Positions 15,874-31,092 of a stretch of 36,023 nt of DNA are shown one piece after another; the stretch's first letter is position 1; each line of letters begins with the position of its first letter. The notes beneath the pieces are model-generated. The model saw only the letters and a list, made by a program, of their open reading frames with translations, did no database searches and had not been told where the DNA came from. Source of the DNA: a virus (taxonomy: Duplodnaviria > Caudoviricetes); the IMG/VR virus record IMGVR_UViG_3300024308_000049, positions 1-36,023 of that record; one strand, written 5' to 3'. The translations under genes and the position numbers were made by a program.

Positions 15874-16647
15874 TCAGCGGCGCCGGCGGCTCGGCAGGCT
15901 GGGCAGCCGACCGGCCAACGCATCGGCGATGGCCTTGTCGATGTTCGCTTCGAGCTGCGCGTCGTTCTCTGCGACCCGGCGCACCACGTCATGGAACTTG
16001 AAGCGCTCGCGGTACTGCGGTTGGCGGACGAAGGCGAGCACCATCGCCACGCTCTTCCCACGCCGCTCGGCAATACCGATGGGCGTCTTGCCGCGCTTCA
16101 TCACGAAGAACGCCAGCGCGTGCCCCTTACGCAGTGAGCGCCGGCTATCAGTCGCAGCGTTGTCCGAACCCGATAGCTTCATCGCCTTCAAGCCCGACAG
16201 GATCTGCGTCATGTGCCCCTTCTGGATATTCCCGTAGGCATCCAGCCGAGCACCGGCCGCCGGCACGACGAAGCGGCCAGCCGGCAGAATCCCCGACTCG
16301 CGCAAGTACTTCTCCGACCGGCGCGTGATCCGCTCCCCGCCTTCGACTTGCGGCAGCAGATAGTCCTCAGCGCTGAATGGATTCTTGCCCGTGCCCTGAT
16401 CCTGTACCCACACCGCTGCTTCAGGGTCAGCCGATGGCTTGGCGTGGATGATACGAATCGAGTTAAGCACCCACGGCGTTGGCCTCGGGTTGAACACATC
16501 TTCCATCTCAGCCCGCAGCGCGATGCGCGCTTGGTTGGCCGTATGGTTGAGTGCATCCGCCAGCGCCCGAGGAGCGAGCCCGCCGCCCAGCTTCTGCAGC
16601 GCGGCCAGTGCATCGTCCAAGTCCCGGGCGTTGATGCTGCCCTTCAC
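15874..16647 (-). CDS. Putative tail-completion/neck protein (gpZ-like N-terminus)
   Basis: 257 aa basic protein; RALADALNHTANQAR pattern resembles gpZ-type proteins; start overlaps the holin stop. Confidence 0.55.
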   Translation of the reverse strand: MKGSINARDLDDALAALQKLGGGLAPRALADALNHTANQARIALRAEMEDVFNPRPTPWVLNSIRIIHAKPSADPEAAVWVQDQGTGKNPFSAEDYLLPQVEGGERITRRSEKYLRESGILPAGRFVVPAAGARLDAYGNIQKGHMTQILSGLKAMKLSGSDNAATDSRRSLRKGHALAFFVMKRGKTPIGIAERRGKSVAMVLAFVRQPQYRERFKFHDVVRRVAENDAQLEANIDKAIADALAGRLPSLPSRRRR

Positions 16648-16988
16648 TCGCCCGTCTCGCGCGGCGGCACATCACACACCCCCGCCCGCTTGGCCAGCCA
16701 GCGCTCATACAACCCGCTGGCTACGTCAGCGCCCATGGTGGCAACCACGAAGCCGATGGCCGCAGCAACCAGCACATGTGCGCCGGCCGCCCAGATCAGC
16801 AGTAACGTACTCAGGCCAAACACAACCGAGGCCCCGGCTCTGAGCGCAACTCGATAGACCAGATCCCAGCCCCGCAACCCAGCCTTGTCCGCGCGCCACA
16901 TCTCGCCGCTGAATCCAGCGACGATGGCGATAACCACAACTACCCAAATGGGCAGCTCAGCCAAGGCCTGCTGTTGCTCTTGAGTCAT
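16644..16988 (-). CDS. Holin, Pseudomonas pyocin PA0614-like
   Basis: 114 aa with hydrophobic segments; SGEMWRADKAG and GLYERW motifs recalled from the R/F-pyocin holin. Confidence 0.88.
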   Translation of the reverse strand: MTQEQQQALAELPIWVVVVIAIVAGFSGEMWRADKAGLRGWDLVYRVALRAGASVVFGLSTLLLIWAAGAHVLVAAAIGFVVATMGADVASGLYERWLAKRAGVCDVPPRETGE

Positions 16989-17011: not shown

Positions 17012-17032
17012 AAAAAACCCGCGTGCCGCGGG
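17012..17032 (-). terminator. Second late-leader terminator
   Basis: CCCGCG-gca-CGCGGG-TTTTTT on the minus strand. Confidence 0.75.
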
Positions 17033-17068
17033 AACGGCTGCCGCCCCTGCCACGGTAGCGTCAGCCAG

Positions 17069-17096
17069 AAAAGACAAAGCCCCGCAAGGCGGGGCT
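17069..17096 (-). terminator. First late-leader terminator (tR'-like)
   Basis: AGCCCCGC-ctt-GCGGGGCT-TTGTCTTTT on the minus strand. Confidence 0.75.
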
Positions 17097-17176
17097 CTGA
17101 ATCCGAGTCGGGTCTCGGGTTGTGCGACACAGCACGTGGCGCTCTGTTGCTCGGTAGGCGTACCTATCGAATCGTG
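17069..17176 (-). ncRNA. Candidate ~105-nt late-leader small RNA (pR' to tR')
   Basis: Lies between a candidate promoter and a terminator; multi-hairpin; contains CCACGUGCUGUGUCG, complementary to motifs in the early transcripts. Ends are inferred. Confidence 0.5.
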
Positions 17177-17181
17177 GTGAC

Positions 17182-17210
17182 TTTGTACCCCTCGAGTGAC
17201 AAACCGAAAA
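17182..17210 (-). promoter_or_regulatory. Candidate late promoter pR'
   Basis: TTTTCG-17 bp-TACAAA, located between the Q-like gene and the terminators. Confidence 0.4.
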
Positions 17211-17262: not shown

Positions 17263-17805
17263 TTATGGAGCCGAGTCGCCCGACGAGCGGTCAACCTTCA
17301 ACTCAAGGCCACGCCCGCGGTGGGCCGCATCCGCCTGCTTCAACGATGCCCGGCGCACACGGTCGCCATCCCGGCGCGACTCCCGCCGCATCACCGTCAG
17401 CTTGCCCTGGCGTTCCAGCAGCCCGGCCTGCAGGCGCTCATGCAGCACGCCCACCTGCCGGTAGTACGCCCGCCGCCCTGCATCGCCGCGCCCCAGCTCC
17501 AGGGCATCCACCTGCTCGTCGATGGTCAGCCTGGGTTCGTTGCGGTACCGCGCATAGGCCAACCGCACCAGTGCCGCGCCGCCCTCCTGCCGCTCGATGC
17601 CGTACAGCACCTGGTTCACCTCAGCCGCTGCGTAATCCGGCCCGGCGCCGGCAACCAGCAGCTTCGCGCCATACACCCCGCCACGCGGCGCACAGCCGGC
17701 GAACTCGACGATAGTGCCCATGGTGCTGGGCAAACCGCCCCCCAGGCCGTTCTGGGCCAACTGCTCGCCCCAATGCCTCAACAGCGTCTCGACAGCCTCG
17801 ATCAT
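17263..17805 (-). CDS. Putative late antiterminator (Q position; resembles pyocin-locus PA0613)
   Basis: LLRHWGEQ N-terminus and C-terminal sigma4-like helix (LAYARY...RRAYYRQV); directly upstream of the terminated leader and holin. Confidence 0.6.
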   Translation of the reverse strand: MIEAVETLLRHWGEQLAQNGLGGGLPSTMGTIVEFAGCAPRGGVYGAKLLVAGAGPDYAAAEVNQVLYGIERQEGGAALVRLAYARYRNEPRLTIDEQVDALELGRGDAGRRAYYRQVGVLHERLQAGLLERQGKLTVMRRESRRDGDRVRRASLKQADAAHRGRGLELKVDRSSGDSAP

Positions 17806-17827: not shown

Positions 17828-18220
17828 TCAACGATTCAACAACCGCTCTTTCTCAAACTCGGCGTCCAAGCGGAGCTTGCGAGCAGCAAGCGGCTCAAGC
17901 ATTTTCACCACAGCCAGGAAGTCCGCCAGCGCCTCGGCAGCGTCAATCAGGATGTAATCAATATTTGATTCATCGATGTTCACATCGAACACGTAGACCA
18001 CGCCAGGAAGTTCATCTGCAGCCCGGACAGCAGCATCGCGGCGGTAGAGCACATAGACGCCATCCTCTTCGTCGTAGCGCACGAATCCTAGGCCCTTGTA
18101 CATCAGGTCATCGTCAAAATTCTCCCAGTTGGCCAGGCTTGGTTTTACAAGCTCCTCCAATGTCTCACCAACCCTCACCAACCCGCCCTTCTCAACCCTG
18201 TAAACGGCCATTTCATTCAC
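17828..18220 (-). CDS. Acidic hypothetical protein
   Basis: 130 aa ORF, AGGAG near the start (exact start uncertain), lower GC than its neighbours. Confidence 0.7.
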   Translation of the reverse strand: MNEMAVYRVEKGGLVRVGETLEELVKPSLANWENFDDDLMYKGLGFVRYDEEDGVYVLYRRDAAVRAADELPGVVYVFDVNIDESNIDYILIDAAEALADFLAVVKMLEPLAARKLRLDAEFEKERLLNR

Positions 18221-21406: not shown

Positions 21407-21605
21407 GCCGCACCTCCATCAACCCCTGGCAGCTCACGCAAAAACGGCAACCCGGCACTGCTTGGCGCCGGGCTTCGGGAATGTCGTCACCACAGCTGTC
21501 GCACTCGGTCGCGCTCTCGCCCTGGTACACCACACGGTTATCGATGGCCTGCTGCAGGCGCGCCTGCTGGGCCGCTTCAGCCATTTCCAGTACGCGCTCA
21601 TCCAT
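21399..21605 (-). CDS. TraR/DksA C4 zinc-finger protein (PtrB-like)
   Basis: CDSCGDDIPEARRQAVPGCRFCVSCQ. Confidence 0.93.
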   Translation of the reverse strand: MDERVLEMAEAAQQARLQQAIDNRVVYQGESATECDSCGDDIPEARRQAVPGCRFCVSCQGLMEVRRG

Positions 21606-22107
21606 CGTGGCGCTCCTCCCCAGCCAGCATGGCCTGCTCGGCGCCGGCGATGATCGCCAGCACCTGGCGAATCACCTCATGCCCGTGGTGCCGCAGCGCC
21701 ACAACCTCATGCGCCTGCCAAACGTTGTCGGCCGCACCGTCGTGCAGGCTGCCCACGAACTCCCCCTCGCGCTGCAGCAAGTCACCCACCGCCTTCAAGG
21801 CATCGCGGGTCGCCTTCACCGGCACCGGCTTGAACCACACCGCCCCGGCCGGACGCATCAGCGCGTCCAGCAGGCGCGGGTCATTGGTCAGGCGGATGAT
21901 GTCTTCAAGCTCGTCCGGGTTTGGCCAGCGGCGTTCCTCGGTCGGGTTCAGCTTCTTCTGCAGGGTGTCGTAACCCGTTACCAGGTCGAGATGCATATCA
22001 GTGGCCAGGGCGCCAATGCCGCCCCGATGGTCACGCCCGGCGCGGTAAAGCGCGTGGCGCAGGGAGAGCACCGGGCCAGCGCCCGGCAGCAGATCTTGTC
22101 GGCTCAT
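21598..22107 (-). CDS. Phage CII-family regulatory protein
   Basis: YDTLQKKLNP HTH and D.RLLDAL motif; position downstream of cro. Confidence 0.75.
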   Translation of the reverse strand: MSRQDLLPGAGPVLSLRHALYRAGRDHRGGIGALATDMHLDLVTGYDTLQKKLNPTEERRWPNPDELEDIIRLTNDPRLLDALMRPAGAVWFKPVPVKATRDALKAVGDLLQREGEFVGSLHDGAADNVWQAHEVVALRHHGHEVIRQVLAIIAGAEQAMLAGEERHDG

Positions 22108-22117
22108 ACCTACCCCA

Positions 22118-22461
22118 AGCCGGCCCCAGGCGGGGCCGGCTGTTGTGTGCTGTGTCTGCCGAGCTGGGCAGTCAGAGTTGCCCCGCTCGACCCCTTCCGT
22201 GCCGAGGGTCAGAGGCCCCGGCGCGGTTACTACCTAAAACCGCCGTTTAACGACATAGCCAGGCAGCCAGGGTTTCCCCTACTATTCCGGCTACGGCGAC
22301 TCGATGTTTCCACGTGCTGTGTCGGCATCGAGCGTCGTGCGCCTGGCGAGGGGTCAGAGCCTCGCCAGGCACCGGTGCAAGGGGTCAGAGCCTTGCACCA
22401 CCCCGCCCACCTGTGTGTCAGAGCTCAGGTGGGCAACCCGCTGGCCCCTTCGGGGGCCAGC
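22118..22461 (-). ncRNA. Highly structured leader between cro and cII: hairpin array with five CUCUGAC loops and two GACACAGCAC boxes
   Basis: GTCAGAG (+ strand) at 22171, 22208, 22353, 22384 and 22417, each enclosed by a different inverted repeat; GTGCTGTGTC at 22147 and 22314; flanking hairpins at 22118-22141 and 22440-22461. Confidence 0.7.
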
Positions 22462-22523
22462 ACCTTTGAGGGCTTAGCGCCCTCTCTCTCTTTCTGCATC
22501 AACCTGCTTCTGGAGAGAAACCA

Positions 22524-22706
22524 ATGCCTGCTCAACCAGATTTTGCTGCAGCCCTTGCAGCGCTAGACCAAGCGCTGGCTGCATTGCCGCCAACAGCTGT
22601 TGGAGATCAAGAGCCGAAGTTTCGCCTGGACTACCTTCGCTCGATTGAGCAGCTACTGGCTGCCCAGATGCGGATTCACAAGCTTCAGGGGAAATACAAG
22701 CCGTAA
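22524..22706 (+). CDS. Small hypothetical protein, antisense to the PR operon
   Basis: 60 aa helical-looking ORF with GGAGA RBS; competes with the overlapping minus ORF 22474-22755. Confidence 0.45.
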   Translation: MPAQPDFAAALAALDQALAALPPTAVGDQEPKFRLDYLRSIEQLLAAQMRIHKLQGKYKP

Positions 22707-22751
22707 GCTCCAGCGTGATGCCGAAAGCAGTGAAACCTTGAGAAAGGCGGA

Positions 22752-23006
22752 TCATGCGGCCTCCGAGTGATTAAGCTCAGCCTCAGGCACGCCGAAATGC
22801 TGCAAGACCTCACAAAGCGAAACCTTCCCCTCACTTTCCCGCGCCAAGGCGCGCAGTAAGCGGAAGCGGGGTTCCTTGCGGGCGTACAAAACGTGCACCT
22901 TCATGTAACCGATAGTCACCCCGCAGCGGCTTGCATACGCCTCAAGCGGGTTACCACCCGGTTCACGCGGGCTATCAATGCTGCGGATGTAGTCGACGAG
23001 TTTCAT
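22752..23006 (-). CDS. cro: Cro-like HTH regulator
   Basis: Divergent from the repressor; ATG 23006 with GAGGTGA RBS; HTH YASRCGVTIGYMKVH. Confidence 0.75.
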   Translation of the reverse strand: MKLVDYIRSIDSPREPGGNPLEAYASRCGVTIGYMKVHVLYARKEPRFRLLRALARESEGKVSLCEVLQHFGVPEAELNHSEAA

Positions 23007-23104: not shown

Positions 23105-23791
23105 ATGAGCAAATACCCCACGATCCCCGAAATACGACACGCCAACCTGCGCCGGGTAATGGACGAGCAGGACATTGGCCCGGCCGAACTCGCTCGCCGA
23201 CTTGGCAAATCACCGAGCCAAGTTGGGCAATTCGCCGGCCCAACTAGATTCAAGGGCATCGGCGATGACGCCGCGCGCGAACTCGAAGAGCTGCTTGGCC
23301 TGGCTCCCTACGACCTAGACAACCCAATCGTATTGCTCGGCCTGAGCACTGCCGAATCCGGTAGCTATCACACGGATGCGACCTTCCAGGCGTACACCAA
23401 GGGCAAGATACCTGTAGTAGGTGTCACAGCGGCAGGAGCTGCAATGGAAGTAATCGACCTCTACCAACCAGGCGTCGCCGAGGAATGGATAGACGCTCCG
23501 AAGAACTACACCCCTGGCTCCTTTATCCTGCGCCTGTCCGGCTTCTCTATGCAGCCTAAGTTTTGGGATGACGACCGCGTGATGATTGAGCCAGCCCTAG
23601 CCTGGTCAGTCGGCGACTTCGTATTCGCTAAGCGTCCAGCCCACGGCGACGGAACCTTCAAGAAGCTGGTAGAAGAAGATGGCCGCATGTTCCTGTTTGC
23701 GCTCAACCCAGACTTCAACCCCCGCTACATTGAAGTGACGCAGGATTGGCACATCGTAGGCAAAGCCACATTCCGGCTAGATAAACTCTAA
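23105..23791 (+). CDS. cI: CI-like repressor (HTH + S24 autopeptidase)
   Basis: N-terminal XRE HTH, Ala-Gly site (TAAG), catalytic Ser (GFSM) and Lys (TFKK). Confidence 0.95.
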   Translation: MSKYPTIPEIRHANLRRVMDEQDIGPAELARRLGKSPSQVGQFAGPTRFKGIGDDAARELEELLGLAPYDLDNPIVLLGLSTAESGSYHTDATFQAYTKGKIPVVGVTAAGAAMEVIDLYQPGVAEEWIDAPKNYTPGSFILRLSGFSMQPKFWDDDRVMIEPALAWSVGDFVFAKRPAHGDGTFKKLVEEDGRMFLFALNPDFNPRYIEVTQDWHIVGKATFRLDKL

Positions 23792-23839: not shown

Positions 23840-23875
23840 GATCGCGTACCCACACTCTGACCCCCGGAGTACGCG

Positions 23876-24067
23876 ATGCAACAGACACAGCACACATCCG
23901 CCCAGGTGCTCCTGCACCCGGCATGCACCACCAACCCGGACGCCGTCCGCGCTGTTCAGCAGGCCACTGGCCGCTTTGTAGTGCTCGTAGGCGGCCGCCC
24001 CACGCTGAAGCAGCCCCAAACCCTGCCCGCCTTCGAGGACTTCGGCCCTTGGGGAGGCGCAGCATGA
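23876..24067 (+). CDS. First early (PL) gene, hypothetical
   Basis: 63 aa, GGAG RBS within a hairpin, ATGA overlap with the next gene. Confidence 0.75.
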   Translation: MQQTQHTSAQVLLHPACTTNPDAVRAVQQATGRFVVLVGGRPTLKQPQTLPAFEDFGPWGGAA

Positions 24068-25191: not shown

Positions 25192-25476
25192 ATGAACCGC
25201 ACCGTGAAAGAGGCCGCCCAGGTACTGGGCATCGCCGAGAGCCAGCTGCGCGCCCACCTGCGCAGCATCAACGCCCTCAACCGCGACGGCACCCTGGCAG
25301 CGCGCCACATCGGCGGCGGCAAGCTGTTCATGGATCCGCGCGTGACCACTATCAAGCGCATCGGCATCCGCAAGCACTACGCCCCAGTGATGGTCACCGA
25401 AGCCGGCATTGACTGGCTGGCCAAGCAGCTCGGCATCGCCATCACCGAACTCCCGGCAAAGGACAGCGCCGCATGA
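25192..25476 (+). CDS. Antirepressor KilAC-like domain protein
   Basis: TVKEAAQVLGI...VMVTEAGIDWLAK; ATG 25192. Confidence 0.75.
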   Translation: MNRTVKEAAQVLGIAESQLRAHLRSINALNRDGTLAARHIGGGKLFMDPRVTTIKRIGIRKHYAPVMVTEAGIDWLAKQLGIAITELPAKDSAA

Positions 25477-26086: not shown

Positions 26087-26137
26087 CCCCCGCGCCCGGC
26101 GGCACCGGGCAATTCTCTGACAACCGAGGCACAGCAC

Positions 26138-26482: not shown

Positions 26483-26542
26483 TCACCCCGAACCGCAACA
26501 CAGCACCACCTAACCATCCTTACTCTGACAAGGACTACAACG

Positions 26543-27334: not shown

Positions 27335-27397
27335 GCCCCAACTCCCTGCGCCAGAGACTCTGACCCCTGGCGCAGGGCACCAACGGAGACACAGCAC

Positions 27398-29942: not shown

Positions 29943-31092
29943 CCGCACTGGGATTGAATGGACCGACGCGACATGGAACCCGATCAGGGGCTGCTCGCGT
30001 GTCTCGGAGGGCTGCCGGCACTGCTACGCAGAAGGCCAGGCAGCCCGCATCATCGCCATGGACCGCGGCCGAGGCGGCGCCGATGGCAAAGGCAGCTACG
30101 ACGGACTGCTTGCCAAGGGCGGCCAATGGAACGGGAAGGTGCGGAAGGTTCCTGAGCTGCTGGATCAGCCGCTGCGCTGGACCAAGCCGCGCCTGATCTT
30201 CGTCAACAGTATGTCGGACCTGTTCCACGAGGACGTGCCGTTCGAATTCGTCGCCGCCGTGTTCGGCGCCATGTCGCATGCACGCCAGCACACCTTCCAA
30301 GTGCTTACGAAGCGCCCCGCACGCATGCTCGAGTTCTTCACCTGGCTGCCTCAGCAGACGTCGCACAAGGAGGCCTGGGTCGCTACCGTGAACCAGGCAG
30401 AGTTCGTCTGCGGCGAAGATAGGGGGCGGCGTGGTTCCGAGAATGCAGCCGTCGAGGCCTGTGCCAGCGCTGCGTACTACAAGCGCGAGCAGATCGCGGC
30501 AGGTCGAAGCCTGCCACATAGCTTCTGGCCGAAATGGCCGCTGCAGAATGTCTGGATCGGCGTCAGCATCGAGGACCAGGCCGCCGCTGATGAGCGCATT
30601 CCGCTGTTGCTGGAGGTTCCGGCCGCCGTGCGGTGGCTGAGCATGGAGCCGCTGCTGGCGCCTGTCGACCTGTCGCGCTGGCTTGAGCTGGGAAGCCTGG
30701 ATACAGACCGGGGTTTGTCAAACCCAGGAATCGACTGGGTGGTAGTAGGCGGCGAATCAGGACCGAAGGCGAGGCCGATGCATCCCCAGTGGGCACGCGA
30801 CCTGCGCGACCAGTGCTCATTGGCCGGCGTACCCTTCCTGTTCAAGCAATGGGGCGAGTGGGCTCCAGGCGAATGCGTCACCCGGAATAGCGGCGTGGTT
30901 CCTACTGCGTCTCTGAGCTGGGAATGGCAATTCAGCACCGAAAACCTCGCACGCGAAGGCGGCCACGTCGACGACGAGCCCGACCTGTACCGCATCGGAA
31001 AGCGTAATGCCGGGCGCCTGCTCGACGGCGTACAGCACGACGGCTATCCGGTGTCCGACCTGGCTATTCGCACGGAGGCGACCCAGCCATGA
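29935..31092 (+). CDS. Phage Gp37/Gp68 (DUF5131) family protein
   Basis: IEWTDATWNP..GC..VS.GC.HCYA, FVNSMSDLFH, LTKRP, EPLL, GGESG and FKQWG motifs. Confidence 0.92.
   Translation: MADRTGIEWTDATWNPIRGCSRVSEGCRHCYAEGQAARIIAMDRGRGGADGKGSYDGLLAKGGQWNGKVRKVPELLDQPLRWTKPRLIFVNSMSDLFHEDVPFEFVAAVFGAMSHARQHTFQVLTKRPARMLEFFTWLPQQTSHKEAWVATVNQAEFVCGEDRGRRGSENAAVEACASAAYYKREQIAAGRSLPHSFWPKWPLQNVWIGVSIEDQAAADERIPLLLEVPAAVRWLSMEPLLAPVDLSRWLELGSLDTDRGLSNPGIDWVVVGGESGPKARPMHPQWARDLRDQCSLAGVPFLFKQWGEWAPGECVTRNSGVVPTASLSWEWQFSTENLAREGGHVDDEPDLYRIGKRNAGRLLDGVQHDGYPVSDLAIRTEATQP

Follow-up and report, generated by a model that had tools for sequence, protein, structure and literature searches.

The window, that is, the whole stretch of 36,023 nucleotides analyzed here, corresponds to a virus record of 36 kb and is a lambda-like Pseudomonas prophage, with P. 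chaetocerotis and Ectopseudomonas as its closest genome matches. Late genes are transcribed leftward, starting at the holin gene (16644..16988, minus strand; PF16085, E 3e-44), and the early operon of the rightward type, comprising cro, cII, a TraR-like gene, primase and a Q-like gene, likewise runs leftward in the window; cI and the other (left) early operon run rightward. The late-leader stretch sits between the holin gene and the Q-like late antiterminator gene (17263..17805, minus strand). The Q-like protein gave no Pfam match and no PDB sequence match; in the case of its structure model (mean pLDDT 74.8) phage 21 Q ranked first, with moderate scores, both in Foldseek (E 0.45, probability 0.80) and in VIA-align (Z 8.7, 102 aligned, rmsd 3.2). 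A 130-aa ORF without family match (17828-18220, minus strand) separates it from primase.

The lysis-lysogeny region contains a CII-like regulator of the phage 186 type (21598..22107, minus strand; PF06892, E 4e-14, phrog_101), a gene called cro-like by position only (23006-22752, minus strand) and, divergent from it, a CI-like repressor (23105..23791, plus strand; phrog_4, PF00717). Between cro and the cro-cII spacer the window has a 93-aa ORF (22474-22755, minus strand) with no PHROG or Pfam match, unlike most relatives inspected, where the spacer lies directly 3' of cro.

Late leader between the Q-like and holin genes

We predict here a late-leader RNA of ~109 nt (17067..17175, minus strand), its ends being placed by the promoter and the U-tract, that consists of a 5' hairpin, a seed hairpin, a third hairpin and an intrinsic terminator (17067..17099, minus strand). 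Its fold reaches -46.9 kcal/mol (z -4.86), a value that none of 200 shuffles equaled or bettered. The predicted late promoter (17182..17210, minus strand) has a -35 element TTTTCG (17210-17205) and, after 17 nt, a -10 element TACAAA (17187-17182), and CACGAT at the predicted start resembles the -10-like pause element of lambda pR'. The arrangement is thus that of a lambda-type late leader, between a Q-like gene upstream and the holin gene downstream, with promoter-like elements, a predicted start and a covarying intrinsic terminator. Since the -35 is poor, constitutive firing is not assured. In many relatives an inverted repeat CCGAAAA...TTTTCGG, a possible protein site, overlaps the late -35 (~17225-17203 in the window), and a second terminator-like hairpin (17018-17032, minus strand), also present in close relatives, lies between the leader and the holin start.

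A set of 99 loci was gathered by way of the Q-like protein; for statistics we used the 72 loci with a cII match whose leader could be delimited and whose upstream sequence was 9 kb or longer, reduced to 53 after removal of sequence overlap. TGCTGTG was present within 330 nt past the Q stop in 97 of the 98 loci with downstream DNA (the 99 loci plus the window, less two that have none). The only seed variant among these 98, L064, differs by one base and has unchanged early boxes. The leader measures 100-129 nt in the relatives, counted from a conserved ACGAT to the terminator; TTTTCG and TA(A/C/G)AAA promoter elements were found in 47 of the 53 loci, and TTGCTG/TTGATG-17-TATAAA occupies the same place in sister phages. 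In an alignment of 25 sequences the TGCTGTG columns are invariant and the first and third hairpins vary freely; the RNAalifold consensus retains the seed stem and the terminator only. Compensatory changes affect 5 of its 14 pairs, all of them in the terminator (5 of 10 terminator pairs), where the G-U changes fit the late (minus) strand; the seed stem shows one-sided changes from G-C to G-U.

A model of the leader matched 15 of 151 family genomes at E ≤1e-5, four of them already sampled, and its weaker true matches still have TGCTGTG; two of 16 places, in L137 and L138, were false matches to the terminator alone and were discarded. In L142 the late leader seems to be interrupted by insertion-sequence-like DNA ~20 nt past its predicted start. 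The seed stays fixed across Q identities of 40-100% while the flanks vary, and it lies 38-54 nt downstream of the predicted start. The conserved element is a predicted terminated leader of ~110 nt whose single seed, (G)UGCUGUG, hardly varies; its copy in the window is GUGCUGUG (seed A'; 17128..17135, minus strand), picked out by conservation and by the single peak of the sliding scan described below.

The seed is partly open in the predicted leader, with unpaired probabilities of 0.43-0.58 for its first four bases and 0.04-0.30 for the last three, and it is exposed in a loop of the local fold in 34 of 53 loci. Apart from the terminator the leaders have little structure (mean z -0.7), and in 42 of 53 it is the opposite strand that gives the better fold. 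As for expression data, four raw-read RNA-seq runs contained 0 reads on the P. aeruginosa-type relative L101, the phage itself being unrepresented in them, and in four contig runs the stretch is found within long pieces that carry no information on ends or level; run X12 has a gap at L101 10016-10102 that coincides with the leader, but it proves nothing.

Complementary words in the early operons

The preliminary description had pointed out that 17125-17139 is the exact reverse complement of 22310-22324 and that both regions are transcribed leftward; both statements hold, the two regions belonging to the leftward operons of the holin (PF16085) and CII-type (PF06892) genes. When the 142-nt stretch was shuffled with its dinucleotides preserved, 13 of 2000 shuffles had a complement of at least 15 nt elsewhere in the window. 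Among the 53 non-redundant relatives the full 15 nt are found in four, at least 13 nt in six and 8 nt in 27, the long match being limited to close relatives. The 15-mer complement is real but incidental: the 15/15 target proposed for the leader in cro-cII is exact, although its length is not conserved, and it is the template-strand copy of the first loop of a predicted antisense RNA of the cro-cII spacer, which has the same 15-mer as the leader. Rfam contained nothing relevant in the window or in four related cII loci.

CACAGCAC occurs nine times in the window (shuffle mean 2.89; nine reached in 1 of 100 shuffles), six times in early sense (22147, 22314, 23886, 26130, 26499 and 27390) and three times reading GUGCUGUG in its own transcript (8981, 17128 and 20070). 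CTCTGAC also occurs nine times (shuffle mean 4.6; nine reached in 6 of 100), always in the early sense, and the six early-sense CACAGCAC and nine CUCUGAC boxes lie exactly where they had been described.

These boxes mark five start regions. In the cII leader (22147..22214, minus strand), at a site lying outside the gene for the spacer RNA, CUCUGAC is present twice (22214-22208 and 22177-22171) and is followed by CACAGCAC (22154-22147). The first left-operon gene (ATG 23876; site 23855..23893, plus strand) has CUCUGAC upstream of the Shine-Dalgarno (SD) sequence and CACAGCAC in its early codons; a yfdP-like gene (ATG 26138; 26115..26137, plus strand) has CUCUGAC and then CACAGCAC between SD and AUG, an order reversed in yfdQ (DUF2303, ATG 26543; 26499..26529, plus strand), where CACAGCAC precedes CUCUGAC. 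In the case of gene 27398 (27358..27397, plus strand) CUCUGAC lies in a hairpin loop and CACAGCAC again between SD and AUG. When cofolded with the leader, the five regions ranked 1, 3, 5, 6 and 7 of 36, the first left-operon gene being rank 1. Rank 2, which may be chance, was the start region of a DNA methyltransferase at 31089 (plus strand), without box. A weakly Ant-like gene at 25192 (phrog_63, E 0.001) has neither box in its start region; being part of the left operon, it could be reached indirectly.

A sliding scan with leader 8-mers over the 53 loci gave a single peak, at GUGCUGUG, with 4.08 sense targets per locus vs 0.21 on the wrong strand, all offsets outside the seed giving at most 0.64 sense targets per locus. 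In the left operons CACAGCAC was counted 158 times in sense and never in antisense; the right operons had 71 sense vs 14 antisense, most of those 71 being the spacer hairpin and not independent. Considering CACAGCA, 196 of 289 sites are at or next to a start codon: 102 between SD and start, 40 directly 5' of the start and 54 just past the ATG. Moreover, the pattern SD-box-AUG had eight matches in five host genomes, all within 12 kb of a leader, and none in the control. A box at the Q start was found in two of 53 loci only. In late genes the box appeared once in sense vs 11 times in antisense before removal of redundancy; in the non-redundant set it was 0 vs 3.7 expected, an avoidance matched by 6.8% of comparable 8-mers and not significant.

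The sequences thus support the proposal of a conserved, terminated leader whose seed could pair with boxes near gene starts in both early operons. The bias of the boxes in strand and position, with its strict 158:0 in the left operon, argues against an orientation-independent DNA site, which the preliminary description had named as the alternative, and their positions at ribosome-binding regions fit translational control.

Predicted antisense RNA of the cro-cII spacer

On the strand opposite to cro-cII we predict an antisense RNA of ~176 nt with five hairpins (22292..22467, plus strand; fold -112.3, z -8.03). Its loops expose seed A' (22314-22321) and three copies of GUCAGAG (22353, 22384 and 22417), and the last hairpin has a UUCG loop and a short U-tract. 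The predicted promoter (22256..22285, plus strand) is formed by TAGCCA (22256-22261), 18 nt and TACTAT (22280-22285). A promoter-like TAGCCA-N17/18-TA(C/T)NNT is found opposite cro-cII in 51 of 53 loci, the remaining two having TAGTCA, and it points to a train of hairpins: the first has a GUGCUGUG loop, the next one to three have loops that could pair with the second box, and the last has a short U-tract. This strand folds better than the opposite one in 44 of the 47 loci that could be delimited, and seed A' is more open here (unpaired probability 0.76-0.90) than in the leader.

The second box exists as phage-wide alleles (CUCUGAC, CUCUCAC, CUCUUAC, CUCUAC and CUCUAUU). The loop allele is the commonest box allele of the left operon in 50 of the 52 loci with an allele, L010 and L020 differing; one further locus of the 53 has none. 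The cII tree demands at least 8 changes of allele, five of them forced by well-supported branches, a count that also fits block descent of the early region. P. aeruginosa-type prophages have two alleles, with matching boxes in each, and the complement to the second box (B) averages 6.4 nt with the own allele vs 1.8 nt with a foreign one. In Halomonas phage H4907 and three similar loci (L140, L142 and L152) the loops are UUGGUUUG and GUGGUGG, and CAAACCAA stands in the same SD-AUG slots. In RNAs of the c4 type two separate seeds recognize the two parts of the target, and this is what the predicted spacer RNA offers in its A' and B' loops; the two-seed, c4-like RNA of these phages is predicted to be the spacer RNA and not the leader.

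Some variants were seen. The spacer element is duplicated in L028, and in L059 and L067 it extends over ~265 nt with extra seed copies. Several loci (L010, L024, L053, L098 and others) have an inverted repeat ACCGTAAA-N7-TTTACGGT just 5' of the cII start; it adjoins the -35 of the antisense promoter and surrounds the cII Shine-Dalgarno, and is a candidate CII site or translation hairpin.

Comparing both RNAs over 151 box sites, the spacer RNA forms 10.5 contiguous Watson-Crick pairs and the leader 8.6. Own boxes are slightly preferred over foreign ones by the spacer RNA (10.5 vs 10.1, p 0.015), whereas the leader displays no preference (8.59 vs 8.58). The co-variation of seed and targets expected across relatives was not found for the leader, the variant seed of L064 facing ordinary boxes; since the box is invariant in this clade, such co-variation cannot be shown. 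The spacer RNA alone suffices to explain the boxes, and it is a stronger case than the leader itself.

The seed hairpin of the leader is built like the first hairpin of the spacer RNA. A parallel with a different word is seen in three related loci of the Halomonas type (L151, L152 and L112), where an element of the late leader, past its first terminator, has the GUGGUGG seed of their own spacer RNA; in L151 and L152 10-11 nt of this element are identical to the spacer RNA. In two sister families (80 and 41 loci) the sequences inspected had short late leaders without an antisense seed. In the large sister family L153-L232 (e.g. L146, L154) the spacer antisense RNA ends in a strong, U-tailed terminator; the late leaders are short, and many of them carry a sense box, CACACCACCACAC, just 5' of their own terminator, complementary to the spacer RNA of that family.

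Possible roles and comparison with known systems

Taking both RNAs together, we favor by a small margin over an even chance (about 0.55) a leader that acts as a single-seed sRNA: in lysogens, or late in infection, it would back up the spacer RNA at the start regions that both address. The late promoter would fire without Q and transcription would stop at the terminator, as for lambda 6S and StxS, yielding a small RNA of ~110 nt whose seed loop would open and pair over 8-10 nt with the CACAGCAC boxes of the early start regions. Such pairing would block translation, and fewer ribosomes would load on the first left-operon gene, yfdP, yfdQ, gene 27398 and cII. These sites would be controlled mainly by the spacer RNA, able through the same seed and the GUCAGAG loops to bind both boxes of each site; the leader would be a one-seed copy of its first hairpin, repressing at another time.

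That time may be the lysogenic state or late infection, at about even odds. As CII of the 186 type is an activator of establishment, and judging by the position of the spacer promoter, this promoter may fire only on infection; in lysogens the leader would then supply the first seed, provided that the spacer promoter needs CII and that the late promoter is constitutive like lambda pR'. Alternatively, the leader would act late, as genome copies rise. The suggestion that Q read-through switches the RNA need not apply to the seed, since the seed stays in the longer transcript.

The alternative that survives best, although unlikely, accepts the pairing but not a leader that represses translation: the leader would pair with the CACAGCAC loop of the rightward cro-cII transcript and so protect the spacer RNA from titration, or the early mRNAs would tune termination or stability of the leader. 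Pairing is indeed symmetrical, the longest match in the window is with that very loop, and the CACACCACCACAC sense box before the terminator in sister phages indicates that late leaders can be on the receiving side; however, the long match of at least 13 nt is confined to six of 53 loci, all close relatives, and the boxes sit at ribosome-binding regions.

A lower probability attaches to the reading of the GUGCUGUG loops of both RNAs, or of the sense boxes, as protein sites, with CUCUGAC as part of a boxA-like nut element and the leader complementarity as a by-product. The placement would suit it, as CUCUGAC is found in the left leader at 23855 and its copies after cro at 22353-22423, and we take CUCUGAC, CUCUCAC and CUCUUAC, before the first left gene and after cro, to resemble lambda boxA at the nutL and nutR positions; alleles changing in concert could also follow the specificity of a protein. 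Yet a search started from the ORFs of five CUCUGAC phages brought up no gene within 10 kb on either side of Q, such as one for an N-like RNA-binding protein, that tracks this allele, and the product of the first left gene is not rich in arginine. The spacer, on its part, has a predicted promoter for antisense transcription, its better fold is that of an antisense RNA, and distant phages switch loops and boxes to other complementary words.

Slightly less probable again is a conserved word that serves in cis, in the DNA or the nascent RNA, when Q loads or when transcription pauses or terminates, or that is a relic of duplication without present role. The seed does lie at 38-54 nt past the predicted start, where Q acts, and GCACGTGC is palindromic in many copies, but the left half of the palindrome is variable and TGCTGTG invariant, the seed is missing in sister phages whose promoters are related, and the 158:0 strand bias of the boxes would not follow; a relic, on its part, would not stay fixed at Q identities of 40-100%.

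The identity first proposed for the leader, a c4-like RNA with GUGCUGUG and UCAGAG as its two seeds, is largely refuted: UCAGAG is indeed found at 17100-17095, overlapping the terminator as described and within the 5' arm of its stem, and both words are present in the window and eight further loci, but it is found in these nine of 53 leaders only, is missing in 10 of the 18 phages using CUCUGAC boxes and is retained in L084 although the boxes there are CUCUCAC, while UGAGAG is in no leader and the scan has no second peak. As UCAGAG is neither conserved nor tracks the box alleles, the leader has one seed. No other antisense source of the second seed was detected within 10 kb of Q or at a shared place in the whole Turba genome. 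The preliminary description had thus recognized the right RNA and its first seed, the second seed belonging to another RNA, predicted on the opposite strand of the cro-cII spacer.

A wider picture, which we offer tentatively and would not expect to hold in full, is that of two RNAs with the same seed, from an establishment-type and a late promoter, that would silence coded early start regions at different stages beside CI and Cro; the terminated late by-product would be the standing RNA repressor of the lysogen, and the allelic second seed would set RNA-based immunity groups. If true, leader and spacer RNA add a post-transcriptional layer to the lysis-lysogeny switch, one that might set immunity groups independently of the repressor, in a prophage family ranging from P. 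aeruginosa phages (Turba, Lodos) to Azotobacter, with other seeds in Halomonas phage H4907. Since both the seed of the late leader and its sites within the genome can be named, late-to-early RNA feedback is testable by simple compensatory mutations. Both RNAs are apparently unpublished: our literature search returned no paper on either, unannotated entries being possible in sRNA catalogues or supplements (e.g. P. putida KT2440, 10.1128/AEM.03236-16), and the matching portions of the text and supplement of PMC2864571 contained nothing pointing to the leader element.

As regards known systems, lambda 6S RNA was seen in lysogens, with one early-operon target by RIL-seq, in a 2024 preprint that states its role as undetermined (10.1101/2024.10.31.621285), and StxS is described as made from pR'-tR' in lysogens and blocking the stx1B RBS (PMC7873438). 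The leader is like both in its place between Q and the lysis genes, in its own terminator and as a predicted by-product of Q control. It differs from them in being directed, by prediction, at several early start regions of its own phage that share a built-in box, in that its seed is common to a second phage RNA, and in having no Rfam sequence-family match.

The spacer RNA, and not the leader, is like c4 of P1/P7 (RF01695), with short loop seeds against ribosome-binding regions and allelic seeds, a likeness extending to the boxes, 196/289 CACAGCA sites lying around the ribosome-binding region or start; searches with the C4 covariance model found nothing in the window (E up to 1), nor at four related cII loci. 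c4 is described as underlying P1/P7 heteroimmunity (PMC12197685). With c4 the leader shares the logic of a seed directed to the RBS, as outlined for c4-type RNAs (PMC12197685, PMC4825925, PMC3632133, PMC8201110), but it has one seed, and it would address 3-5 genes, lying in two operons at a distance of 5-10 kb, instead of ant; neither by the model nor by seed number is the leader a member of the C4 family. P4 CI is reported to be processed from the transcript it controls, with termination at seqA/seqC (PMC4825925). Unlike P4 CI, the spacer RNA has its own predicted promoter on the opposite strand.

The cII gene here is of the 186 type (PF06892) and the antisense promoter lies just upstream of it, pointing to cI, a position that we take to be like that of phage 186 pE; unlike that of the 186 establishment promoter, the transcript here would begin with seed hairpins and a terminator-like end. 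CII of 186 is described as an activator that primes CI expression to establish lysogeny (PMC7708051). Finally, P22 sar, lambda OOP and aQ are short phage RNAs that tune switch genes (PMC12197685); each acts on one overlapping or adjacent mRNA, whereas here two RNAs with a shared seed have dispersed predicted targets.
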